Source: a bacterium (GTDB taxonomy: Bacteria > Patescibacteriota > Minisyncoccia > Phycocordibacterales > UBA918). Taken from it: DNA of 42,994 bases. A program made the position numbers and the translations under genes. Position 1 is the stretch's first letter. Every line of letters starts with the position of its first letter. Below the pieces are notes generated by a model that was not told the DNA's origin, did not search any database, and was given only the letters and a program-made list of their open reading frames with translations. Shown here one piece after another: positions 2,832 through 42,481 of this stretch. Location of the stretch: contig JAIYEC010000069.1 in assembly GCA_027487145.1 (NCBI GenBank), forward strand, positions 1 to 42,994, given 5' to 3'.

Positions 2832-2903
2832 TCCGCGGTAGCTCAGCGGTAGAGCAGTCGGCTGTTAACCGATTGGTCGTAGGTTCGAATCCTACCCGCG
2901 GAG
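2832..2903 (+). tRNA. tRNA-Asn (anticodon GTT)
   Basis: Cloverleaf folded by hand. Acceptor tccgcgg/ccgcgga, D arm gctc-agcggta-gagc, anticodon arm gtcgg-ctGTTaa-ccgat (GTT at 2864-2866), variable loop tggtc, T arm gtagg-ttcgaat-cctac, discriminator G. CCA is not encoded. Confidence 0.95.
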
Positions 2904-2920
2904 CTTGAGAATGATTCAGC

Positions 2921-2950
2921 AAACACACACCTCACGAGGTGTGTGTTTTT
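2921..2950 (+). terminator. rho-independent terminator after tRNA-Asn
   Basis: aaacacacacc(tcacga)ggtgtgtgttttt, a GC-containing stem followed by T5. Confidence 0.8.
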
Positions 2951-3027
2951 GCAATGGTAGATGGATGAAGTAGTAGTTGTGCTAAAAAACCAGTACGTAG
3001 AAGGTGAAAACAAAGTAAGACAAATGA

Positions 3028-4921: not shown

Positions 4922-6667
4922 ATGTACCATATGTCTCCCAAGAGCCTCTTTTTATTCAAAAAGAACGTCTACTTAAAAGTAGGAGCTTTTCTCTTGATCA
5001 TACCGACTATTCTCGTACTCACATTTACTCAAAACAAGCCTGTTGCTGATGCGCAAATTGCCTCACTCTATGCTTCTACCTGTCTTGGTGGTTGGAAAGA
5101 TGTCGATAAAGTAACTGGCGTTCCTGAGGTAGCGGGAGATGCTTCGGTCGAATACTCTGAGAAAAATTCCGCAACACTCTATAATAAACAAACACAAATT
5201 TATTGTGGTGGTTTTACCGGACAGATTCCTGACGGAGTAAACAGAACCAAAGTAGCATTACGGTTTTCGTGGGGAGTAGAAGGTGTGATAAGAGATACTG
5301 TCCCACAAAGAGATAATCAAGAAACTAATTCAGTAGGTAATACAACAATTATCGAATCAGATACAGCTTCAGGAACGAGTGAAACTAGTGGGGGAGTACA
5401 GTCAGATAATTCTGAAAGTGTAGAACCTGCTCAAGAAGAAGAGGTTCCGGTAGAGGCGCAGCAAGAACCTGCTGTAGAAAGTGAGAGTGTTTCTTGGTGG
5501 AGGCAATTAGTACCACAAGCATTTGCGCAAGAAGAAGTCATCGAAGATGTAGGTCCAGTTGACGAGGTGATGGTTGAGCCGACAACCCCTGAAGCTACTC
5601 AGCTAAAAGAAACTACTACAGCTCAGGCGACGTCTACCGACGAATCAAAAGACGAAGAAATATCATTGGAGACAGATGAGATTCTTGCCAGTTCTACAGC
5701 TAGTTCTTCTGCTACTTCAACTCAGCGATCGTACGTCTCACCAATTTTTGATGAGAATACCAGTAAGGACAACGCTTTATTTGAGGTATTGTTTACCTTA
5801 GATAATGAAAATTGGTATCCGTTGGGATACGTCTCTCGTATCAATAATGATATTCAGTTTGAGCTACCGCTTGAGTTATTTACCTCGGTAGAAGATTTTA
5901 ATAAACTTCAAATTTCACTCAAGACAGTGGAGCGCTTTGATGAAACGCCCAAAATCTATCTTGATAGTATGTGGATTGAAGTGTCGTATCTTGGTGTCGA
6001 CGAAGATCCGTTAGCGCCACCAGGAACCCGCGGCGGAGACGTCATCATGAGTTCTGTGAGCACACCAGAGACCACCCTCGTGACAGTCTTTCGAGGAGTA
6101 AAACTTGAAACTCTTTCAAATATCACTAGTTTACTCGCAAGTACGACGGCTACCGGTACCGCCAGCACAACACTAGTACAAGGAACGAGCACAGAAGCTA
6201 GTGGTGCTGCCATTGTTGCTCCGCTTGCACAGAGTTCAACATTAGCCACTTCATCAGCCACTTCAACAGCCAGTACTTCAATACCGATGGTGACGTTCGA
6301 ATCTGAGATTCCGCTTGAAATACGGAAAGAGCTCCGAGCGACGCCTGGCGTAGAGGTAGAGGTGTGGCTCTATGACAGATTAACAGATGCGTGGACGAGA
6401 GTCGCTGACAATAGTAGTACTGCTACGGTTCCTAAAGCCGTGTTATTGGATAATAAAGTCTTTTGGTTTGGTCCTGAAAATACCAGTTTGTGGCTGTTTG
6501 ACACAGTAGCAAATAGTTATAGTTCGCGGTCACTTTCAGTCACGGAACCAGTTGAGATTGAGTTTATTAATTCTGCCGGAGCAGTCGAATATGTACAGTA
6601 TAATGTTGAGTCAGAACAGCTTGAACGTAAAGGTAGTGTAAGTTCAAGTAGTGTATCGAGTGTGTAG
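4922..6667 (+). CDS. hypothetical N-terminally anchored surface protein with acidic and S/T-rich low-complexity linkers
   Basis: 581 aa. N-terminal TM/signal anchor VYLKVGAFLLIIPTILVLTF, an E/S/T-rich region, and S/T-rich tracts. First gene of a tightly spaced six-gene operon. Confidence 0.7.
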   Translation: MYHMSPKSLFLFKKNVYLKVGAFLLIIPTILVLTFTQNKPVADAQIASLYASTCLGGWKDVDKVTGVPEVAGDASVEYSEKNSATLYNKQTQIYCGGFTGQIPDGVNRTKVALRFSWGVEGVIRDTVPQRDNQETNSVGNTTIIESDTASGTSETSGGVQSDNSESVEPAQEEEVPVEAQQEPAVESESVSWWRQLVPQAFAQEEVIEDVGPVDEVMVEPTTPEATQLKETTTAQATSTDESKDEEISLETDEILASSTASSSATSTQRSYVSPIFDENTSKDNALFEVLFTLDNENWYPLGYVSRINNDIQFELPLELFTSVEDFNKLQISLKTVERFDETPKIYLDSMWIEVSYLGVDEDPLAPPGTRGGDVIMSSVSTPETTLVTVFRGVKLETLSNITSLLASTTATGTASTTLVQGTSTEASGAAIVAPLAQSSTLATSSATSTASTSIPMVTFESEIPLEIRKELRATPGVEVEVWLYDRLTDAWTRVADNSSTATVPKAVLLDNKVFWFGPENTSLWLFDTVANSYSSRSLSVTEPVEIEFINSAGAVEYVQYNVESEQLERKGSVSSSSVSSV

Positions 6668-6668
6668 T

Positions 6669-9600
6669 ATGAAATACGTTCTCGGTTTACAGAAGTGGCA
6701 TAACATACTCATTTTGATGATTGTGAGCGTATTCATCTTTAATCAAGGTGAATTATTTCAGTTACGAAACTTCAGTAAATCAATTGCGCCACTACCAAAA
6801 ACTGCCGAGGCCACGTATCAGTTTGCTCCAACCGGTGGGGTAATCGTCACTGGTACAAATCCACCTATATTGGGAGCAACCGCCCCAAATGCTGAAGGGG
6901 TGAATATGGGAGATTGGCGCGGAGCAGCAGCAGACGACAATCTCCACTTTGGTATTACCTCAACTACGGGTGGGTACAATGCCTATCTTGATATGGCTGG
7001 GTTTGAACTTAACAATGCCAACGCAATTATTATTCAAACCGAATTTGACTTAGACGTTACTGCGCCAAACACGCTTATTCAAATCTGTGACTGGGTCTCT
7101 AATGTCGGGGTCCATAATGCAGCTGATGCACAGTGTTCAAACGGCGGGTGGCGAAATTTAAATCTTAATGATGTTGTGCTGGCGCCAACAACCGCTACAA
7201 CATATTCTTGGCAAATTTATAATGGCTATTGGGATACCAGCGCAACAGCACCTATTGATACTCCTCTCACAAACTTCTTAAACGGCGGATCAGTTCGAAT
7301 TCGGTTTTTTTCGACCACAAACACAACCTCAATCGTTAATATCGACTTCCTTCGAGCGTTTGCGGTAGTGAATCCAGTTTACTATGCCTCAGGAGTGACT
7401 CAGCTTTCGGGAGGAACCCCAACGGGAAACTACACACTTGCTACAGTTGGCGGTGTGACTCAGACAGGGTCTGATGATGTACGTTTTGCCGTACCAGGTA
7501 CTGCCGGGTCTATCTCGGACTTCTACTTCTCATTTGATGACGTTCGCACGTACACTGGGGCAAATACTATTTTAGTGCGGGCGGAATACTCATGTAGTGC
7601 GGTTGGTATTAATCATCGACCAAAAATTTATAACTTCACCACGGCTTCATGGGAAGATCTCACAACTGCGTCAATTATATGTGCGGGGGTTGATGCCACC
7701 AACGCCTGGGCAAAAAATAATGTGACAATTGGGGATTACGTACAAAACGGTGAAATTAGAGTGGGGTGGTACGGTCTTGCTAATGGTACGCAAGCAATCC
7801 AGCTTGATTTTATATACGTCATGATTGGGACGACCAATACTGATGCTGGAGCTGGTGCTGCAGAAATTAGTTTCGGTTCGGTCTCAGCGGGAACTGTCAC
7901 AAACACCCGTACGCTTGATATGACTGGTACCGCTAGTACTTGGAATATTCTCTCGGCTGATGAGTCTAACACACAAGCATTTGCCAGTTATGCTAACGAT
8001 ACTGACAACGACACTGTGGTTGAGGAAGCGAGTGCTGCCAATATTGATTTTTCAGTTACCGTTCCTGATAATGTTGCACCAACCGGTGTATTTTTTGCCA
8101 GTCGACATATGGCTGGTACTGCTGGTAACGTCCAGGTTGGGATTTACGACTACGGTGGGCTTACTGGAACCCAAGGGGGATGGTCTGCCGTTGGGGCTGT
8201 TGGAGCGACAACCCTCACATACACAGATAACATTGTCGCTAATACGGTGGCTTCAGGAGGTGCTGCGGGCTGGAATACTAACCCTGAAGACCACGTTGAT
8301 ACCAGAAACAACCTCATGAACCTACGGCTCCGCACTTCCTCGGCTGGAGCAACTACTAACAACTCTATTGCTCAGTGGGACTTTGCCATGGTGAGCCTCC
8401 AGTGGGTTGAAGATGGTAACTATCCCGCCAAAACCTATCAATATGCGCCTACCGGTGGCGCAATCGTGACCGGTTCAAACCCAGCCATTTTGGGTGCAAC
8501 AAATCCGGCGACTGAAGGGGTTAATATGGGTGACTGGCGCGGTGCAATTGCACCGGACAACCTTCACTTCGGCATCACGTCAACCGTCAGTGGCTATAAT
8601 GCCTATCTTGATTTGGCCGGGGTAGCTCTTAATGGAGCGAATCAGTTTATTATCCAAACTACCTTTGACGTTGACCCTACGACCCCAAACACACTCGTCC
8701 AAATCTGTGACTGGGTCTCCAGCACAGGAGTGAATAACGCAGCCGACGCACAGTGTACCACCGGCGGTTGGCGGAATCTGAATCTCAATGACGCGGCGGC
8801 TGTCCCGGCAACCCCAACTGCATATTCATGGCACATTTATAATGGCTACTGGAACACCAGCGCAACTGCGCCGATAAATACACCACTGACTAATTTTGTG
8901 AATAATGGATTAGTTCGGATTAGATACTTTTCTACGACTAATACCACTTCAGTAGTGAATATCGACCACTTGCGCCTCTTTGCGGTTGTGAATCCGGTGT
9001 ACGGTCCATCAAGTGCAACGCAGATTAGCGGGGGAGCAATAGTGGGTGATTATTCTCAAGCCAATTTTGGTGGGGCTGGTCAAACAGGGTCTGATGATGC
9101 CCGTTTTAGTGTTCCAGGTACAGCGGGTGCGATATCAGATTTCTACTTCTCATTTGATGAGGTAAAGACGTATACCGGGGCAAATACCATTTTAGTGCGG
9201 GCAGAATACTCGTGCAGCGCCGTCGGTATCAACCACACTCCTAAAATATTTAATTTCACATCAGGCTTATGGGAAAACCTAGCTGCAGCTTCAATCGCTT
9301 GCTCAGCCACCGATGTTACCAATGCGTGGGCTAAGAACAACATCACTATGTCTGACTATGTCTCAAATGGTGAGATTCGAGTAGGGTGGTTTGGTTCGGC
9401 CAATAACGTTCTTCAGCTACGGATTGATACGATTTATATCATGATTGGTACCACCAATACTGACGGCACAGGAAATATTACCTTTGGTTCAAACTCGGCA
9501 GGAACAGTTGCTAATACCCGTACGCTTGATATGACCGGTACAGCGAGCACGTGGAATATTCTCTCGGCTGATGAGTCCAACACACAGGCTTTCGCATTTT

Positions 9601-10526
9601 GGGGAAATGATAACGACAATGATGCGACAGTAGAAGAAGCCAGTTCAGCCAATATGGATTTTTCAGTTACTGTCCCACAAAATACGTTTCCGACCGGAGT
9701 ATTTTTTGCTTCGCGACATATGTCAGGTATTGGAGGGACAGTTACACCAGCGGTGAGAGATTATGGAGGGCTTATCGGTACGGTTGGAGGCTGGTCTGCT
9801 GTAGGTGTTGGTGGAACAACCGCGCTGACATACTCTGACAATATTACTGCTAATACCATCAACTCAGGTGGCTCAGCTGGCTGGAATACCAACCCAGAGG
9901 ATCATTTTGATACTGTAAATAATGAGATGAATATGAAATTACGCACCAGCATTTCATCAACACCAACAACTAATAACGCTATTGCACAATGGGATTTTGC
10001 GATGGTGAGCTTCCAGTGGATTGAGGTTCCCAAAGTTCAAAAGCTAACCTTTTCAATTTCAGATAATACCATCGGGTTTGGACCAGTTGGTTCAGCTGCG
10101 GCGAGGTACGCCACAGGAGATACACTAGGTAGTGCAACTGATGCCGCAAACGCGCATACTATTAGTGCGTCCACAAACGCTGATAGTGGGTACACCATCA
10201 CCCTTAATGGGGCGACTTTAACCTGTGCAGCGTGTGCTGGGGCTACCATTTCGGAGATTGGCGGAACCGCCGTCGCTTCAAGCGTGGGGACTGAACAATT
10301 TGGTCTTAGAGGGATAGTCGTGAGTGGGAACGGAACTATCAGTTCTCCGTATAACGGTGCAAACTGGGCGCTTGATACAGCCGCTTTCCCGGACACGTTT
10401 GCTATTGGTGCAGGGGATGCTGTAACGACTGTCTTTGGGATACATTATCTAGCAAATACGAGCGCCAGCACTGAATCAGGTCAGTACAGTGCAAATCTGA
10501 CATACATCATTACGGCATCGTATTAG
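6669..10526 (+). CDS. giant secreted surface protein: 2 x 539-aa tandem repeat plus WxL/SCPU-like C-terminal domain
   Basis: The ATG at 6669 is 2 nt after the upstream stop; the track start 6651 is GTG inside the upstream gene. N-terminal hydrophobic segment ILILMIVSVFIF. Repeats at 6810-8426 and 8427-~10031. The C-terminal domain (10044-10523) is homologous to the C-terminus of the next gene. Confidence 0.85.
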   Translation: MKYVLGLQKWHNILILMIVSVFIFNQGELFQLRNFSKSIAPLPKTAEATYQFAPTGGVIVTGTNPPILGATAPNAEGVNMGDWRGAAADDNLHFGITSTTGGYNAYLDMAGFELNNANAIIIQTEFDLDVTAPNTLIQICDWVSNVGVHNAADAQCSNGGWRNLNLNDVVLAPTTATTYSWQIYNGYWDTSATAPIDTPLTNFLNGGSVRIRFFSTTNTTSIVNIDFLRAFAVVNPVYYASGVTQLSGGTPTGNYTLATVGGVTQTGSDDVRFAVPGTAGSISDFYFSFDDVRTYTGANTILVRAEYSCSAVGINHRPKIYNFTTASWEDLTTASIICAGVDATNAWAKNNVTIGDYVQNGEIRVGWYGLANGTQAIQLDFIYVMIGTTNTDAGAGAAEISFGSVSAGTVTNTRTLDMTGTASTWNILSADESNTQAFASYANDTDNDTVVEEASAANIDFSVTVPDNVAPTGVFFASRHMAGTAGNVQVGIYDYGGLTGTQGGWSAVGAVGATTLTYTDNIVANTVASGGAAGWNTNPEDHVDTRNNLMNLRLRTSSAGATTNNSIAQWDFAMVSLQWVEDGNYPAKTYQYAPTGGAIVTGSNPAILGATNPATEGVNMGDWRGAIAPDNLHFGITSTVSGYNAYLDLAGVALNGANQFIIQTTFDVDPTTPNTLVQICDWVSSTGVNNAADAQCTTGGWRNLNLNDAAAVPATPTAYSWHIYNGYWNTSATAPINTPLTNFVNNGLVRIRYFSTTNTTSVVNIDHLRLFAVVNPVYGPSSATQISGGAIVGDYSQANFGGAGQTGSDDARFSVPGTAGAISDFYFSFDEVKTYTGANTILVRAEYSCSAVGINHTPKIFNFTSGLWENLAAASIACSATDVTNAWAKNNITMSDYVSNGEIRVGWFGSANNVLQLRIDTIYIMIGTTNTDGTGNITFGSNSAGTVANTRTLDMTGTASTWNILSADESNTQAFAFWGNDNDNDATVEEASSANMDFSVTVPQNTFPTGVFFASRHMSGIGGTVTPAVRDYGGLIGTVGGWSAVGVGGTTALTYSDNITANTINSGGSAGWNTNPEDHFDTVNNEMNMKLRTSISSTPTTNNAIAQWDFAMVSFQWIEVPKVQKLTFSISDNTIGFGPVGSAAARYATGDTLGSATDAANAHTISASTNADSGYTITLNGATLTCAACAGATISEIGGTAVASSVGTEQFGLRGIVVSGNGTISSPYNGANWALDTAAFPDTFAIGAGDAVTTVFGIHYLANTSASTESGQYSANLTYIITASY
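6810..10031 (+). repeat. in-frame tandem duplication, period 1617 nt (539 aa)
   Basis: ATYQFAPTGGVIVTGTNPPILGAT... (from 6810) realigns with KTYQYAPTGGAIVTGSNPAILGAT... (from 8427) over the entire unit. Long identical peptides are shared, e.g. YTGANTILVRAEYSCSAVGINH and TRTLDMTGTASTWNILSADESNTQAFA. Confidence 0.9.
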
Positions 10527-17640: not shown

Positions 17641-17792
17641 AGACAAGGTGAGCTATGGGATGGGCCCCATAGCGCAAGACTCATTGAGATATTTTAAAGC
17701 GAAGCGAGAAAATATCCAATGAGTGGACAGCTTCTGTAAGAAGGGAGGAAAAATTTTTGAGGTGTACGTATTTACTAAAGTGCAACGTAGTA
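17641..17792 (-). repeat. post-stop structured repeat, copy F (long form, 5' part truncated)
   Basis: The reverse complement reads ...cgttgcac...gtacacctcaaaaattttt... followed by a ~105-nt module (17641-17743) that is ~96% identical to 28892-28996. It starts right after the def stop at 17793, in the orientation of def. Confidence 0.85.
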
Positions 17793-20319: not shown

Positions 20320-20353
20320 GCTAAAATGCACCTATTAATAGGTGCATTTTAGC
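20320..20353. repeat. 34-bp perfect palindrome with conserved core ATGCACCTATTAATAGGTGCAT
   Basis: gctaaaatgcacctatt/aataggtgcattttagc. It lies between the murA stop and the priA start, 58-91 nt upstream of priA. Same core as the palindromes at 33528-33567 and 33982-34015. Confidence 0.9.
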
Positions 20354-21931: not shown

Positions 21932-22011
21932 ATGGGATGAGTATAGCAGATATGCTATGTCGTATGGATTTACCCCTGGGTATAGTATTTTGTGATACTA
22001 TACTGCCACGT

Positions 22012-23025
22012 ATGTTTGCGTCTTTAACGCCCAAAATTGGTATCGATCTTGGTACCACCAGTATCCTGGTGTTTGTTCCCGGCCAGGGGATTGTTCTTAA
22101 TGAACCGTCAGTGGTAGCTATTTCTGAGAATAACGAAGTATTGGCGGTTGGGAGTGAAGCCAAGGCTATGATTGGCCGAACGCCTGATAGTATCCGAGCC
22201 TACCGGCCTATGCGCGATGGTGTTATCGCTGACTATAAAGTGACCGAAGCCATGTTGCGCTACTTCCTGAAGAAATCAATGAGTAAGTACAGTCTCTTTC
22301 GTCCGGATGTAATGGTTTCAGTACCAGCGGGCGTTACTTCAACTGAGCGTCGAGCAGTGGTGGAAGCTGCCATGCGAGCTGGAGCAAAAAATGCCTTTGT
22401 CGTAAAAGAACCAATTCTGGCAGCGATTGGCGCAGGAGTACCTATTTATGAACCACAAGGACACATGATTGTAGATATGGGAGGCGGTACTATCGACGTT
22501 GCTGTAATTTCTCTCGGTGGCATTGTGGCGGCCAACTCCGTAAAGTGTGCCGGTAACCGAATCGACACGGCCATTATCGATTACGTCAAAAAGACTCGTA
22601 ATCTTGCGATTGGAGAAAAAACGGCTGAAGATATTAAAATTGGCGTTGGTTCAGCCTTACCACTTGAAGAAGAACTTACGATGGAAATCAAGGGTCGTGA
22701 TATGTTGTCAGGCTTGCCTCGCACGACCGAGATTAAGAGTAATGAAGTTGTTCGTGCTACACAGAAAGAATTGAAAGAGATGATTAAAGCCATTAGAGAT
22801 GTGTTTCAAGAGACACCACCTGAGCTCGCCGCAGATATTATTGATGGAGGAATTATTCTTACGGGCGGTACCTCACAGCTTCGTAATTTCCCAGAACTCA
22901 TTAGGCGTCGAACTGGCGTGAAGGCCCGGGTCGCAGACCAGGCCCTGTTTTGTGTGGCGAAAGGGACGGGGACAGCGCTTGAACATCTTGATGTCTACAA
23001 GCGCGCCGTACTCGCGAAGCGGTAA
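22012..23025 (+). CDS. mreB: MreB/Mbl-family actin-like protein (paralogue 1)
   Basis: IGIDLGTTSILVFV..GIVLNEPSVVA...GRTP...RPMRDGVIADY... The start is moved to the ATG at 22012 (MFASLTPK...), which has TATACT 7 nt upstream. Confidence 0.85.
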   Translation: MFASLTPKIGIDLGTTSILVFVPGQGIVLNEPSVVAISENNEVLAVGSEAKAMIGRTPDSIRAYRPMRDGVIADYKVTEAMLRYFLKKSMSKYSLFRPDVMVSVPAGVTSTERRAVVEAAMRAGAKNAFVVKEPILAAIGAGVPIYEPQGHMIVDMGGGTIDVAVISLGGIVAANSVKCAGNRIDTAIIDYVKKTRNLAIGEKTAEDIKIGVGSALPLEEELTMEIKGRDMLSGLPRTTEIKSNEVVRATQKELKEMIKAIRDVFQETPPELAADIIDGGIILTGGTSQLRNFPELIRRRTGVKARVADQALFCVAKGTGTALEHLDVYKRAVLAKR

Positions 23026-23026
23026 C

Positions 23027-23146
23027 GCGTTTTAATAAGTACTCATCTACTTCGTTACTTTCACAAAAAATATTTTCAATGTACAAAAAAGTACACCTCA
23101 AATATTTTTTGCTCAGCGCCTCGTATCTAAGCACTTATTAAAACGC
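23027..23146 (+). repeat. post-stop structured repeat, copy A
   Basis: Closing stem gcgttttaataagt (23027-23040) / acttattaaaacgc (23133-23146). P2 is caaaaaatattt / aaatattttttg. P1 is tgtac-aaaaaa-gtaca (23080-23095). Conserved boxes acttcgtta and gctcagcgcctcgtatct. Confidence 0.85.
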
Positions 23147-23279
23147 TTGAATGTACCACTCTAATCATTAAGAATGTACTTTCATACGTTACTCAGATTA
23201 TTCGCGTTACAACGTGACTGCGCCTGGGTGTGGTTAAGAGAGACCTGCTTTTACAGTTGTCTCTAGTACAATACAAATA

Positions 23280-27304: not shown

Positions 27305-28804
27305 ATGGTGAATGTTGGTTCTTTGCCCGTGGTGGGAGATAGGCTCTTTGATTTAGATACACAAGCAGGTATCACTGCGGTGCTATTAGCAGTTCGTGCC
27401 AGTGATTTGCCAGTAGCTGAAAAAAATGAATTACGAGATCTCGTCTTCCTCTATACCAATGGTGGGAGAGATCAAAGTGTACGATTAAGTCTTGAACAAA
27501 AGATCACTACCGCTGGGCTCGTACCAACAACACCTAAAAAAACTTCCGTCGCAAATCAGGAACCAAAACGTGAACTACCGACGATTGGGACATTTCGAAG
27601 TGCTCCTTCGTTCTCGGTTCCAGTTGTGCCAACTCCAGAGGTTGTCGTAAAGCCAGTCGTTGAGCCAGCTCCTGTCGTTCAGTCTGCACCTGTTTACTCT
27701 TCTATTCCAGAACCAGTACCGGTAAAGCCCGCTCCACTTTTTTCGCAACAACCCACTGTTTCTGTAGGAGAAGTTGAGTCGCTCCATGAGGACGTCCAGG
27801 TGCCACCAGTGGCAATGCCAAAAGCCGACCAACAACAATATCTTGATCGAATTCGCGAGATAAAATCCCTCGTCAACGAAAAGGTTGGAAACCCGGTTAA
27901 TTTAGTTGATATCAACAATGAAGTTGGGCGAGAATACATGAGCGCTCTTTTGGATGCAATGAAGCGCATCAATAGTGGTATGTCTGCAGACAGTGCGATG
28001 GTTCGTCTTGAGGCGGCGTACCAAGCGGTAGAAGATACACTGCGAAGTGTGGGGTCTGAAGTTGTTCCGCCTAAGATGGAGGCAGAGGTGGCTCCTGCTC
28101 CGGTAGTAGAGGAAGCGTATGTTGCACCGGTACCACCACCAGCCCCACTGCCTGTGTATGCTGCGCCAACACCTCAGCCAGTCATTCCTGCACAAGCACC
28201 TACTCCTTCGTACCAACCCGTAGTTGCGCCAACTCCTGCGTATGAGCCGCTTTCGCAGTACCAGTCACCAGCTGAGTCAGTCGTACCGCCGACAAAACAC
28301 GTTGAACCAGTAGCTGTTGTGCAGCCGGTTGTACCAATGCCTAACTATAATCAGACACCAACGACACCTACCGTTCACTCTCCAGTACCACATTCGTTCT
28401 CATCTCTTGCTGATATGGTCCAACAGTCTCACGCTCAGTCAGGACTACCAGTAACCCCGGCGACAAGTATGCCACTTCAGTCTGGCGACCCACTTCTCTC
28501 AGTACAGGTTGAAGAAGGTCTCACTCAACTTCTTTCAGAGTGGTCAATCTTCAAGAAGAGTGGCATCTTTGGTACTGGTCCGAAAGGTCGCGAACATCCC
28601 CTCTATAAAAAAATGGCAGAGTTACAGATCCCTTTACTCTTAGCTGGTAGATTTGAAGGCGCAACCCAAGAAGTCCGACAAAGTCTCACTGATTACATGA
28701 ATGGGTGGCGATATGAGCAAGGTCTTATTTACGAAAAAGGTGAGACGTTTGAACACTATCTGAGGCGGGTTATACGACACATCCTTGACCAGCAAGCGCG
28801 ATAG
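27305..28804 (+). CDS. hypothetical protein with long Pro/Val/Ala-rich linkers
   Basis: 499-aa ORF with two proline-rich low-complexity stretches separating three small globular segments. No motif recognised. Confidence 0.6.
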   Translation: MVNVGSLPVVGDRLFDLDTQAGITAVLLAVRASDLPVAEKNELRDLVFLYTNGGRDQSVRLSLEQKITTAGLVPTTPKKTSVANQEPKRELPTIGTFRSAPSFSVPVVPTPEVVVKPVVEPAPVVQSAPVYSSIPEPVPVKPAPLFSQQPTVSVGEVESLHEDVQVPPVAMPKADQQQYLDRIREIKSLVNEKVGNPVNLVDINNEVGREYMSALLDAMKRINSGMSADSAMVRLEAAYQAVEDTLRSVGSEVVPPKMEAEVAPAPVVEEAYVAPVPPPAPLPVYAAPTPQPVIPAQAPTPSYQPVVAPTPAYEPLSQYQSPAESVVPPTKHVEPVAVVQPVVPMPNYNQTPTTPTVHSPVPHSFSSLADMVQQSHAQSGLPVTPATSMPLQSGDPLLSVQVEEGLTQLLSEWSIFKKSGIFGTGPKGREHPLYKKMAELQIPLLLAGRFEGATQEVRQSLTDYMNGWRYEQGLIYEKGETFEHYLRRVIRHILDQQAR

Positions 28805-29018
28805 AACGCCTTCAAAATCCTCCAATACTTCGTTGCTTTCACAAAAGTTTCTTTCACTGTACACCAAGTACACCTCAAGAAACTTTCTTTCCTTCTTACA
28901 GAAGCTGTCTACTCATTGGATATTTTCTTGCTTCGCTTTAAAATATCTCAATGAGTCTTGCGCTATGGGGCCTATCCCATAGCTCACGCCTTGTCTTGAA
29001 GCATTTTGAAGCGTTCTA
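28802..29018 (+). repeat. post-stop structured repeat, copy B (long form)
   Basis: Closing stem tagaacgc-c-ttcaaaat (28802-28818) / attttgaagcgttcta (29003-29018). P2 is aaagtttctt (28844-28853) / aagaaacttt (28877-28886). P1 is tgtac-accaa-gtaca (28858-28872). Carries an inserted module at 28892-28996 with two hairpins. Confidence 0.9.
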
Positions 29019-29029
29019 GAAAACAAATT

Positions 29030-29059
29030 TTGACATCGACGGCAAGAGAGATACATAAT
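29030..29059 (+). promoter_or_regulatory. promoter of the holB-like gene (leaderless configuration)
   Basis: TTGACA (29030-29035), 18 nt spacer, CATAAT (29054-29059), then 7 nt to the ATG at 29067. Confidence 0.55.
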
Positions 29060-31350: not shown

Positions 31351-31357
31351 ATCACCC

Positions 31358-31448
31358 CATCTGCGTCGTTGTGTTCATTAAAAATTCTTTCAATGTACAG
31401 TAAGTACACCTCACAAAATTTTCTGCTCGCGACGCGCATCTCCGATAC
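31358..31448 (+). repeat. post-stop structured repeat, copy C
   Basis: ctgcgtcgttgtgttc...tcaa-tgtac-agtaa-gtaca-cctc (P1 at 31394-31408)...ctgctcgcgacgcgcatct. It begins 8 nt after the rseP stop. Confidence 0.8.
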
Positions 31449-31487
31449 TAAGTTAAGTCTTTTAGCTTAGTATAAATACCAACTCCT

Positions 31488-33527: not shown

Positions 33528-33567
33528 CCTACAAATATACACCTATTAATAGGTGTATATTTGTAGG
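33528..33567. repeat. 40-bp perfect palindrome with conserved core ATACACCTATTAATAGGTGTAT
   Basis: cctacaaatatacacctatt/aataggtgtatatttgtagg. It lies 18 nt after the proS stop, and its right arm overlaps the -35 region of the TrpR-like gene. Confidence 0.9.
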
Positions 33568-33588: not shown

Positions 33589-33987
33589 ATGACAAGGATT
33601 TCTAAAAATGCAGTCGAGGATAGTGAAGATTATAAGTTTGCATATAAGCAACTATCTAGGTTTCTTGCTGGTCTGCAGGATAAGAACGCACATTTCTTTA
33701 TCGACGAGCTTCTTAGTGAGTCAGAACAAGTGATGTTAGTGAAGCGATTTACAGCCATCTACCTCTTTCAAGAAGGACATAATCCATATAGGGTCAGCCA
33801 GATGATCGGTGTTAGTGAATCCACTGCCCAGAGATTGCATCATGGTTACAGAGAGGGGATCTATAACAATTTACTCAAGTGCATTAAAAAATCGGAAAAA
33901 GCTGAATTTTTAACAGTACTTCAAGACTTTCTTTTGTCGAAAGCGGATGCCAAAGCGAGAACAAGACTTCTTAAAAAAGCTCTCTAA
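33589..33987 (+). CDS. TrpR-like / YerC-YecD family HTH protein
   Basis: LLSESEQVMLVKRFTAIYLFQEGHNPYRVSQMIGVSESTAQRL fits the LLTP.E...L..R......L..G.S...I....GVS..TI.R pattern. Start set to the ATG at 33589 (TATACT at 33577-33582, 6 nt upstream); the track start 33553 is GTG inside the palindrome. Confidence 0.6.
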   Translation: MTRISKNAVEDSEDYKFAYKQLSRFLAGLQDKNAHFFIDELLSESEQVMLVKRFTAIYLFQEGHNPYRVSQMIGVSESTAQRLHHGYREGIYNNLLKCIKKSEKAEFLTVLQDFLLSKADAKARTRLLKKAL

Positions 33988-34015
33988 ATACACCTATTAA
34001 TAGGTGTATTTAGAG
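33982..34015. repeat. 34-bp perfect palindrome with conserved core ATACACCTATTAATAGGTGTAT
   Basis: ctctaaatacacctatt/aataggtgtatttagag. It contains the TAA stop of the TrpR-like gene and lies just upstream of the mreB promoter. Confidence 0.9.
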
Positions 34016-34068: not shown

Positions 34069-35142
34069 ATGAACGTTTTTACGCGACAATGGAGCGGGCT
34101 GCTTTCAGCGGTCTCAACTGACATGGCGATTGACCTGGGAACGGCCAATACCTTGGTGTATGTAAAAGGAAAAGGGATTGTGCTCAATGAGCCAACGATT
34201 GTTGCAATAAATAAGAAAACTGGACAGCTGGTGGCAGTCGGAAACGATGCTAAAGTAATGCTGGGGCGCACTCCGGCTCATATTGAAGTAGTGCGACCGC
34301 TGGTTGATGGAGTAATTTCTGATTTTGAGGTGACCGAAGAAATGTTGGCATACCTTATTGGTAAGGTCCGAAGTGAAATGAAAACACTGGTGGCACCTCG
34401 GGTGCTGATTGGTGTGCCATCAGGTATTACAAACGTAGAAATGCGAGCAGCACACGACGCTGCTAAAAACGCCGGCGCACGTGATGTTTTCTTGATTGAA
34501 GAACCAATGGCCGCTGCTATTGGTGCCAAGCTGCCGATTGGAAAATCAGTTGGAAGTATGATTGTTGATATTGGTGGTGGTACAACTGATATCGCTATCA
34601 TTTCACTCAATGGTCTCGTTGTTTCAAAGAATCTTCGGATTGCCGGCGACCATCTTAATGCGTCAATTGTTTCTTACATCAAAGATCAGTTCAAAGTACA
34701 CGTTGGAGAGAAAACCGCTGAAGATGCCAAAATAGCGCTTACGGCAATCACAAACACGCAGACAGGAGGCAAGGATTTGGTTGTTCGAGGTCGTGATGTG
34801 GTAACAGGCTTACCTCGCGAAGTAGTTATCACTGATAGTGATGTCAGGGATGCGGTAGCGGGCCATATTGATACGATTGTAGAAAATGTACGCGCCGCCC
34901 TTGAGGTGACTCCGCCTGAGGTTTTGGCAGATATTATGCAGCGAGGAATCCACCTTTCAGGCGGAGGAGCACTTATTCCGGGTCTGGCGTCGCTGCTTGA
35001 ACATGCCCTTGCGGTGCCAGTAATTGTTGTCCCTGATCCACTTCGAGCTGTTATCCGAGGTGCTGGAATTGTGGTTGAAGATCTCGATGTATACAGCGAA
35101 ATTCTCTTAGATCATGAAGCTTCATTCCAGACACACTTCTAA
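34069..35142 (+). CDS. mreB: rod-shape protein MreB (paralogue 2, canonical operon copy)
   Basis: MAIDLGTANTLVYVKGKGIVLNEPTIVAI...GRTP...VRPLVDGVISDF...DIGGGTTDIA; followed by mreC. Confidence 0.9.
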   Translation: MNVFTRQWSGLLSAVSTDMAIDLGTANTLVYVKGKGIVLNEPTIVAINKKTGQLVAVGNDAKVMLGRTPAHIEVVRPLVDGVISDFEVTEEMLAYLIGKVRSEMKTLVAPRVLIGVPSGITNVEMRAAHDAAKNAGARDVFLIEEPMAAAIGAKLPIGKSVGSMIVDIGGGTTDIAIISLNGLVVSKNLRIAGDHLNASIVSYIKDQFKVHVGEKTAEDAKIALTAITNTQTGGKDLVVRGRDVVTGLPREVVITDSDVRDAVAGHIDTIVENVRAALEVTPPEVLADIMQRGIHLSGGGALIPGLASLLEHALAVPVIVVPDPLRAVIRGAGIVVEDLDVYSEILLDHEASFQTHF

Positions 35143-38154: not shown

Positions 38155-38182
38155 TTGACCTACGCTCGTTGGCACGTATAAT
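38155..38182 (+). promoter_or_regulatory. greA promoter
   Basis: TTGACC (38155-38160), 16 nt spacer, TATAAT (38177-38182). Confidence 0.5.
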
Positions 38183-38670: not shown

Positions 38671-38795
38671 GAGAAACTACCACAGCCCTAAATCTGCTTC
38701 GTTGTTTCGCCAGAAATTTCGTTCAATGTACAGGCGTACACCTCACAAAATTTTTTAGCTTACGCCTCGCATCTTCAGCACTGTGCTAGTTTTCT
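38671..38795 (+). repeat. post-stop structured repeat, copy D
   Basis: ctgcttcgttgtttc...tcaa-tgtac-aggc-gtaca-cctc (P1 at 38727-38740)...agcttacgcctcgcatct. A loose outer stem is gagaaacta / tagttttct. It lies between the greA stop and the terminator at 38798. Confidence 0.8.
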
Positions 38796-38797
38796 AG

Positions 38798-38833
38798 AAA
38801 AGACCGACGCTCACGTGTCGGCCTTTTCTTTTT
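38798..38833 (+). terminator. rho-independent terminator of greA
   Basis: aagaccgac (38800-38808) / gtcggcctt (38817-38825) followed by TTTTCTTTTT. Confidence 0.7.
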
Positions 38834-42335: not shown

Positions 42336-42450
42336 AGAATTCTCAAAATCTCCTCAAACTTCGTTGTGTTGCACTCGGAAACACTCATCGTACAAAAAGT
42401 ACGCCTCGCGTTTCCTCACTTGCACGCCTCGTCTGAGAAAATTTTGACCA
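42336..42450 (+). repeat. post-stop structured repeat, copy E
   Basis: tcaaaat (42343-42349) / attttga (42442-42448) closing stem. aacttcgttgtg box. P2 ggaaac (42377-42382) / gtttcc (42410-42415). P1 cgtac-aaaaa-gtacg (42389-42403). 3' box cacgcctcgtct. Confidence 0.8.
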
Positions 42451-42481
42451 TCCTCTAATATTCACTTAAGTATGCAACACA

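Follow-up and report, generated by a model that had tools for sequence, protein, structure and literature searches.

What is the structured repeat that recurs just past stop codons in this stretch of DNA, and which of its two strands does the structure serve? Patescibacteria genomes are tiny and about 94% coding (PMC10768705); the stretch analysed here, 42,994 nt at its full length (the window), nonetheless spends about 130 nt per ~7 kb on one conserved structure. A sequence-only reading of the window had described six copies in the orientation of the upstream gene, with compensatory base changes, and had proposed that they encode a functional RNA rather than a peptide or a purely DNA-level repeat.

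Copies of the element in the window and their architecture

Going through the sequence, we found all six copies, five complete and one (F) truncated, each co-oriented with its upstream gene and starting 0-8 nt past the stop codon of that gene, as had been claimed. A repeat search of the window independently recovered the family, and the pattern TGTACN{3,8}GTACRCCTC matched the window four times, with none expected. The upstream genes are those of mreB, an unassigned 499-aa ORF, M50/RseP, GreA, MraZ and Def:

23027..23146, + strand: copy A, complete, after mreB paralogue 1 (stop TAA 23023-25)
28802..29018, + strand: copy B, complete, after the 499-aa ORF (stop TAG 28802-04)
31351..31461, + strand: copy C, after the M50/RseP gene (stop TAA 31348-50), with a weak outer stem
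38671..38795, + strand: copy D, after greA (stop TAA 38666-68)
42336..42456, + strand: copy E, after mraZ (stop TAG 42333-35), with the compensatory change CGTAC/GTACG in P1
17641..17792, - strand: copy F, truncated, after def (stop 17793-95 on the minus strand)

Two MreB paralogues are encoded in the window, at 21937-23025 and 34069-35142. The first, after which copy A is placed, is located ahead of a gene for a HerA/TraG-like ATPase, and the second is part of an mreBCD-PBP2 cluster.

It is well supported that the element belongs to an old, vertically kept family of imperfect palindromes of about 125-135 nt, each forming one long hairpin. The base of the hairpin is a ~20-bp outer stem. Towards the tip this is followed by a conserved junction, in which CTNCTTCGTTG faces CGCCTCGCATCT, the variable stem P2 of ~11 bp, a second conserved junction (TTCAA / CCTCA) and P1, a 5-bp tip of the form TGTAC-loop-GTACA. 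In copy A these parts are placed as follows:

23027-23046 with 23127-23146, + strand: outer stem
23047-57, + strand: 5′ box CTACTTCGTTA
23064-75 with 23100-11, + strand: P2
23080-84 (TGTAC) with 23091-95 (GTACA), + strand: P1
23116-28, + strand: 3′ box GCGCCTCGTATCT

The sequence-only reading had treated the outer stem as an optional, copy-specific addition. Its arms are indeed copy-specific in sequence, but the stem itself turned out to be part of the conserved architecture, with its base on the stop codon. Neither conserved terminal repeats nor a target duplication was seen at the outer ends.

The pairing is conserved far better than the sequence. Pairwise identity among the window copies is 62-72%, against a shuffled baseline of 57%, and P2 stays complementary in spite of the sequence differences among them, in agreement with the initial description. 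In an alignment of 65 sequences, 16 of the 24 consensus pairs showed double changes. A larger alignment of 87 sequences, made on the reverse strand, spanned the entire element and contained 30-31 pairs; 88% of its paired cells were complementary, compared with 62.6% after shuffling and 37-50% when the partners were slid, and 696 cells, against 237, had changed on both sides. The covariation that had been expected of a larger alignment was evident in this set, with a score of 0.615 against 0.17 that was matched by none of 500 shuffles. The double change described for P1 of copy E was confirmed, and it recurs: of 87 other copies, 84 have U-A and three the same C-G swap. A small ORF or peptide on either strand was rejected by reading, as the lengths vary by non-multiples of three.

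Copy B is split by a nested module (module M) between the 3′ arm of P2 and the 3′ box. Copy F retains the 5′ box, has the 5′ arms of P2 and P1 deleted, and carries module M as copy B does:

28891-28986, + strand: module M in copy B, made of CTTCTTACAGAAGCTGT, a variable hairpin, CTTGC, a short G+C-rich hairpin and CA(C)
about 17660-17755, - strand: module M in copy F, 97% identical to the copy B insert over ~100 nt

The near-identity of the two modules contrasts with the divergence of the elements that host them. The core of the module, CTTACAGRAGCTGT, recurs at the same element site in locus L066 (3510-3600), the insertion point in B, F and L066 being that between the 3′ arm of P2 and the 3′ box, and the module also stands free of the element in L076 (5290-5380 on the + strand and 6990-7070 on the - strand), L028 and L034. 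It had no match in Rfam.

The window holds two further kinds of repeat. A third palindrome family, AAAATGCACCTATTAATAGGTGCATTTT, with 86-100% identity among its members, is located at 20323-20350, 33534-33561 and 33985-34012, at or just past the end of an ORF; its appearance is that of an operator or of a bidirectional terminator whose stem is conserved. The ORF of 1291 aa at 6651-10526, which had no Pfam hit, contains an internal duplication at a spacing of ~1620 nt, comprising two repeat pairs of 300 and 256 nt that are 71-75% identical.

Family size, hosts and anchoring at stop codons

The sequence-only reading had suggested that a covariance model be built. Ours (R1), seeded mainly from other genomes and run on the window with filters off, retrieved only the five complete copies, at 61-97 bits: copy A (23027-23148) scored 97.1 bits, D 83.6, C 80, E 68.5 and B 61.1, and the next best match in the window had an E-value of 2. 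Copy E was found though it was absent from the seed and lies outside the search pattern; copy F was missed. On the genome loci the model reported 120 hits. These loci came from a scan of species-representative genomes with the pattern TTCANTGTACN{4,6}GTACACCTCA, which has 19 fixed bases and matched 92 loci, against about 13 expected by chance according to our own estimate. The nested architecture was common to the flanks of all 92, and the same core pattern was found in at least 120 metagenome contigs. In viral contigs there was a single hit, which matched the pattern only and was judged to be chance.

By record label, nearly all hosts are Patescibacteria (Saccharibacteria, Paceibacteria/Parcubacteria, Kaiser-, Nomura- and Campbellbacteria); the others include about 12 'Clostridium/Clostridia' MAGs and a few MAGs of Desulfobacterota type. 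Several taxon labels are mis-binned or loose, and the phyletic range beyond Patescibacteria is therefore uncertain: the upstream protein of the 'Acidimicrobiales' locus L028 is 76% identical to its counterpart in the Paceibacterota locus L015, and GreA proteins from 'Kaiserbacteria' and 'Saccharibacteria' records are 81-90% identical. Clear members (49-76 bits), which may reflect either horizontal spread or mis-binning, were also seen on long, G+C-richer contigs with labels other than Patescibacteria:

L071, 2690-2880: member on a contig labelled Desulfobacteraceae
L088, 7874-7995: member on a contig labelled Syntrophaceae
L090, 1647-1768: member on a contig labelled Deltaproteobacteria

The element of L088 follows a canonical terminator and not the stop codon of a long ORF.

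The earlier failure to recognise the element as a known RNA family holds for Rfam 15, where a scan of the window at the gathering threshold returned only a tRNA, and scans of copies A, D and B/M by E-value yielded nothing beyond chance hits below the threshold. The literature that we searched on repeats, hairpins and ncRNAs of Patescibacteria and Saccharibacteria, in searches that were partly incomplete, held no description of it. The family is a large, undescribed group of hairpin elements of ~130 bases in Patescibacteria.

The orientation lock noted in the window extends beyond it. With genes called by our own ORF caller, the upstream gene was co-oriented with the element in 99 of 113 copies, while the downstream gene was co-oriented in 70 and opposite in 38. 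As the upstream gene is co-oriented and the downstream gene points either way, the element is to be assigned to the 3′ end of the gene before it. Measured from the stop codon, the distance to P1 has its mode at 53 nt and falls within 51-57 nt in 58 of 87 copies, with a minor mode near 43 nt, one helical turn shorter; the same spacing was reproduced in the metagenome contigs. The next start codon follows at variable distances of 10-140 nt. Complementarity between the arms is 65/57/53% at the three bases of the stop codon and 47/40% at the last two coding bases, and it reaches background by position -3 of the coding sequence. This profile indicates that the base of the hairpin coincides with the stop codon. 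We rejected a helix reaching deep into the coding region, for which the signal was marginal (best match of the last 12 coding bases 6.41, against 6.15 permuted). The upstream stop codons are TAA in 59 copies, TAG in 23 and TGA in 5, and the tie to UGA that marks a stop-codon recoding signal (SECIS) was not seen.

The host genes are highly expressed housekeeping genes, among them atpE, infB, tig, greA, secY, rseP, rplF, ssb, nusG, rpmE, rpsL, metK and genes of sigma factors, and in the Clostridia-labelled MAGs rpoB, rpoA, pyrH and a Mur ligase gene. Fourteen orthologue groups recur as upstream genes. At such recurrent positions the proteins are 81-90% identical for GreA, 52-62% for RseP and 55-66% for one further group, and the elements that follow them share only the conserved junctions, their stems being wholly different yet paired. 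We read this combination of conserved positions and divergent stems as long-term retention under structural selection and not as recent transposition.

A lock to the replication strand was considered and rejected, as it is broken by convergent pairs within 1 kb (L082, L047, L079 and L067) and by window copy F. In the convergent pair of L082 there is one element per gene (2675-2796 on the + strand and 2895-3016 on the - strand), and the order between the two genes is element, canonical bidirectional terminator, element. In L089 a direct tandem pair (1079-1199 and 1205-1327) follows one gene.

Transcription of the element and the folds of its two strands

Copy D provides information on how the element is transcribed. 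As the sequence-only reading had it, this copy lies between the greA stop codon and a canonical terminator and is not itself the terminator:

38155-38182, + strand: sigma-70-like promoter upstream of greA, TTGACC-16-TATAAT
38798..38833, + strand: intrinsic terminator directly after copy D, stem 38804-38821 and T-run CCTTTTCTTT
29030-29059: strong promoter-like site after copy B

As promoter, greA, element and terminator follow one another in this order, the sense strand of copy D is inside the greA transcript. Canonical terminators were found within 90 nt after 24 of 113 copies (21%), compared with 10 of 348 random windows. The sense strand of the element does not itself look like an intrinsic terminator, as TTTT was present in the 3′ arm of 58 of 105 copies and the helix reached the run in 41% of those. 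On the antisense strand a TTTT run was found in 55 of 105 copies, with the helix abutting it in 84% of those. There is no A-tract ahead of the stop codon and hence no U-tract after the complete antisense hairpin, nor was a position-specific antisense promoter signal seen at a fixed offset beyond the hairpin.

The resemblance of the unpaired CCUC to an anti-Shine-Dalgarno core, which had been pointed out with reserve, has no visible target: any motif of the GGAG/GAGG/AGGA type within 16 nt of the start was present in only 11 of 45 downstream genes. Among the downstream genes of loci L005-L096, the start codons of the Patescibacteria loci are preceded by A/T-rich sequence; those with GGAGG are mostly from Clostridia-labelled MAGs.

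The proposal of a functional RNA stood in part. The element is structured, its changes are compensatory and its sense strand is transcribed; the covariation, however, does not show an RNA of the sense strand, and the antisense strand folds better. The reverse complement had a mean folding energy of -50.4 kcal/mol, compared with -36.2 kcal/mol for the sense strand, and was the more stable of the two in 95 of 96 copies, as it was in all 78 copies of an independent metagenome set. For copy A the minimum free energies are -31.4 kcal/mol (z -7.8) sense and -55.7 kcal/mol (z -12.4) antisense, for copy E -31.4 and -52.4 kcal/mol, and for copy D -26.7 kcal/mol (z -1.7), where the consensus fold is not adopted, and -49.5 kcal/mol (z -5.8). 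Energy parameters for DNA gave the same strand preference for the window copies. Both strands are structured (mean z -5.7 sense and -8.2 antisense), with a significant sense fold in 83% of copies and the P1+P2 consensus adopted by 96 of 106.

The source of this asymmetry can be seen in the junctions. The internal loops TCAN/CCTC of the sequence-only reading are conserved and, as described, unpaired when the sense strand folds; in the antisense fold these loops, like the boxes, form tandem G·A plus G·U pairs. In all four conserved junctions the sense strand has C·U, U·C or A·C mismatches. TTCAA/CCTCA, TC/TC, TTC/CTC and ATCT/ATCT, pyrimidine mismatches on that strand, are tandem G·A plus G·U pairs when the antisense strand is read. 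Some copies, e.g., those of L088, L090 and L017, have extra tandem G·A units. A kink-turn or box C/D motif was rejected by reading only, the tandem G·A pairs lying in symmetric loops without a 3-nt bulge.

Isolated mismatches between Watson-Crick pairs of P2, which are spread along the helix, follow the same direction. Read on the sense strand, there are 33 A·C and only 8 G·U, and in the second, metagenome set 20 A·C and 4 G·U. A mutational bias was tried as an explanation and rejected, as terminator-like hairpins from the same loci had 36 G·T and 27 A·C; in the spacer after the element G and C are about equal. The sense strand of the element itself is 23.5% C and 15% G. On the antisense strand the mismatches rank as G·T ~ G·A, then pyrimidine·pyrimidine, then A·C, and G·U is rare, at ~2% of P2 pairs. 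In the terminal loop, the sense strand has 47% A, 24% T, 21% C and 8% G; the antisense loop is accordingly 47% T. Both this ranking and a T-rich loop resemble the known stabilities of DNA hairpins, and we infer that they fit single-stranded DNA at least as well as RNA.

Known repeat systems and possible roles of the element

Among known systems, the element behaves most like the REP/BIME and BOX/ERIC repeats and, by position, like attC, and it lacks defining features of each. REP, BIME and REPIN sequences of Proteobacteria are likewise interspersed imperfect palindromes found only at transcribed gene ends, past stop codons and between co-directional or convergent genes. REP hairpins close to a stop codon are known to influence how stable an mRNA is and how it is translated, and recognition of REP by its transposase is strand-specific and takes place on single-stranded DNA. 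REP sequences, however, are 20-40 nt long, have a GTAG foot, occur in clusters in both orientations and are similar within a genome. Our element is at gene 3′ ends outside coding sequence as they are, but in place of their palindrome size, GTAG and clustering it shows single copies of 125-135 nt, locked to the upstream gene and starting at the stop codon, with different conserved boxes, invariant junctions and copy-specific stems, shared across a phylum-level lineage. No RAYT (Y1 HUH transposase) gene was found among the window ORFs scanned.

BOX of Streptococcus pneumoniae and the ERIC and Correia repeats resemble the element in their size (~100-200 nt), in the long hairpins formed by complementary ends and in being co-transcribed with their neighbours, and the optional internal modules of BOX are comparable to module M in copies B and F. 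These repeats have conserved terminal sequences, high identity among copies and presence/absence polymorphism; the element, unlike them, has copy-specific ends, the low identity given above and positions conserved between diverged orthologues. An integron attC site also lies immediately after, or overlaps, the upstream stop codon in a fixed orientation, and its structure is conserved over its sequence; that its functional fold is antisense to the ORF (the bottom strand) is a likeness by analogy only, the antisense fold being here the more stable one. The element differs from attC in having no RYYYAAC/GTTRRRY core sites, cassette arrays or integrase, in following core housekeeping genes, and in its hairpin tip, which is conserved here and variable in attC. 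The RNase III hairpins of phage T7 and the stabilisers in operon 3′ UTRs (cf. REP after malE) are comparable as intercistronic hairpins with conserved internal loops by which the upstream message is left with a protective hairpin at its 3′ end; they are RNAs of the sense strand, whereas the pairing evidence for the element favours the antisense strand.

The reading that we favour, at a probability of roughly 0.3, is that the element is a direction-dependent hairpin at the gene end, using both sense transcription and the stronger antisense fold. Because the junctions are mismatched on the sense strand and paired on the antisense strand, one DNA palindrome yields two different hairpins. The sense hairpin, moderate and interrupted (~-36 kcal/mol), would be passable for the terminating ribosome and for sense RNA polymerase, and might still serve the upstream cistron as a barrier or a mark for processing at its 3′ end, which it may protect or define. 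The antisense hairpin, nearly continuous and very stable (~-50 kcal/mol), would stop or mark any transcription or unwinding that enters the gene from downstream, and could in this way block incoming transcription. The lock to gene ends, the fixed spacing, the base at the stop codon, transcription of the sense strand, structure on both strands, the polarity itself, the kind of host genes and the lack of a background bias in the mismatches all count for this reading. Several observations count against it: in about one fifth of the loci bidirectional canonical terminators lie between the element and any downstream source of antisense transcription, there is neither an antisense promoter signal nor a U-tract after the complete antisense hairpin, the TTTT run in the 3′ arm is present in only about half of the copies, and the rarity of antisense G·U, with G·T ~ G·A, looks more like DNA than RNA. 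Moreover, the invariant junctions are left unexplained, as a plain A-tract with a hairpin would be a far cheaper way to polarity, and antisense traffic should be minor, as many copies are within operons (def-fmt, mraZ-rsmH, atpE, rpoB-rpoC).

Some of these objections turn into arguments for a role at the level of DNA, which we consider a tentative possibility. Here the antisense strand, folded as single-stranded DNA, would be the target of a nucleoid protein or of a DNA enzyme with strand specificity, such as an HUH/Y1 transposase, a tyrosine recombinase or a repair/restart factor; RNA of the sense strand would be a passive by-product, and selection would orient the weaker-folding strand into the mRNA. 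The nearly uniform antisense preference in both sets of copies, the mismatch ranking and T-rich loop, and the lack of a dedicated antisense promoter are all consistent with this, as are the confinement to gene 3′ ends, shared with REP, and behaviour typical of a repeat family, namely the tandem copies of L089, the convergent pairs, the truncated copy F and the nested, near-identical module M. What does not fit is that orientation is locked to the gene rather than to replication, as those convergent pairs and the inverted copy F show, and no process is known to us by which the template strand would become single-stranded at gene ends in particular. Recent spread is not apparent either, given the low intragenomic identity and the positions conserved across diverged orthologues; no transposase or recombinase was found among the window ORFs scanned, and the ends bear neither conserved terminal repeats nor a target duplication. 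The same ends, together with the absence of high intragenomic similarity, set the element apart from MITEs (Correia, ERIC, BOX, RUP). A selfish MITE of this kind, inserting at TA or at stop codons, would account for an interspersed palindromic family with a modular nested insert, cf. the boxA-boxB-boxC of BOX, and for its occurrence in several phyla by record label. We regard it as unlikely: the outer arms are copy-specific, the orientation is locked, orthologous positions are kept with compensatory change, the TA of the stop codon is paired in only 53-57% of copies, and viral contigs are free of the element apart from the one chance hit.

The converse of the DNA-level role is a function of the sense RNA only, as a 3′-UTR or intercistronic hairpin with pyrimidine loops that is bound by a protein or cut by an RNase and stabilises or punctuates the mRNA of the upstream cistron. 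The sense strand is certainly in the mRNA, its fold is significant in most copies with P1 and P2 as in the consensus, and its terminal loop is rich in A; sites after atpE, ssb, nusG and secY are where unequal expression of cistrons is expected, and the tight anchoring at the stop codon suggests a link with translation. A sense RNA helix is expected to tolerate G·U far better than A·C, and the opposite tolerance was observed in both sets. Together with an antisense fold that is more stable by ~14 kcal/mol in all copies but one, and with the sense fold of copy D, which departs from the consensus, this makes the sense-only reading doubtful. Very unlikely, in our view, is that the sense strand acts through base composition or its CCUC loops, either as an anti-Shine-Dalgarno mimic that sequesters ribosome-binding sites or as a C-rich, G-poor loading site for Rho past the stop codon. 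The sense strand does conserve CACCUC and GCCUCG, and its excess of C over G would suit Rho; the mimic fails, however, as the downstream genes are mostly without such sites, and Rho sites are unstructured, whereas the element is strongly structured.

Returning to the direction-dependent hairpin, a broader formulation, which we put forward as conjecture, is that the family may be a new class of polar gene-end element, conserved across Patescibacteria and possibly some Clostridia and Desulfobacterota, in which polarity would arise from tandem G·A/G·U pairs on one strand that are C·U and A·C mismatches on the other, and which would either keep antisense transcription out of core genes or be recognised as DNA of the template strand by some factor. 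Anchoring at the stop codon combined with a built-in strand asymmetry is unusual for any known repeat family, and the presence of the element at the ends of atpE, infB, tig, secY, greA, rpoB and ssb implies an important undescribed layer of gene-end biology, which could concern the fate of mRNA, control by antisense transcription or transactions of DNA. The few Saccharibacteria that can be grown and manipulated genetically make the element accessible to experiment.

Two independent Logan contigs (L001 and L002, whose GreA is identical to that of the window) end 52 nt past the greA stop codon, just before the conserved core. Judging from these contig ends, short-read assemblies are probably interrupted at the conserved core; this may explain why the element went unnoticed, and annotators should be aware of the effect.
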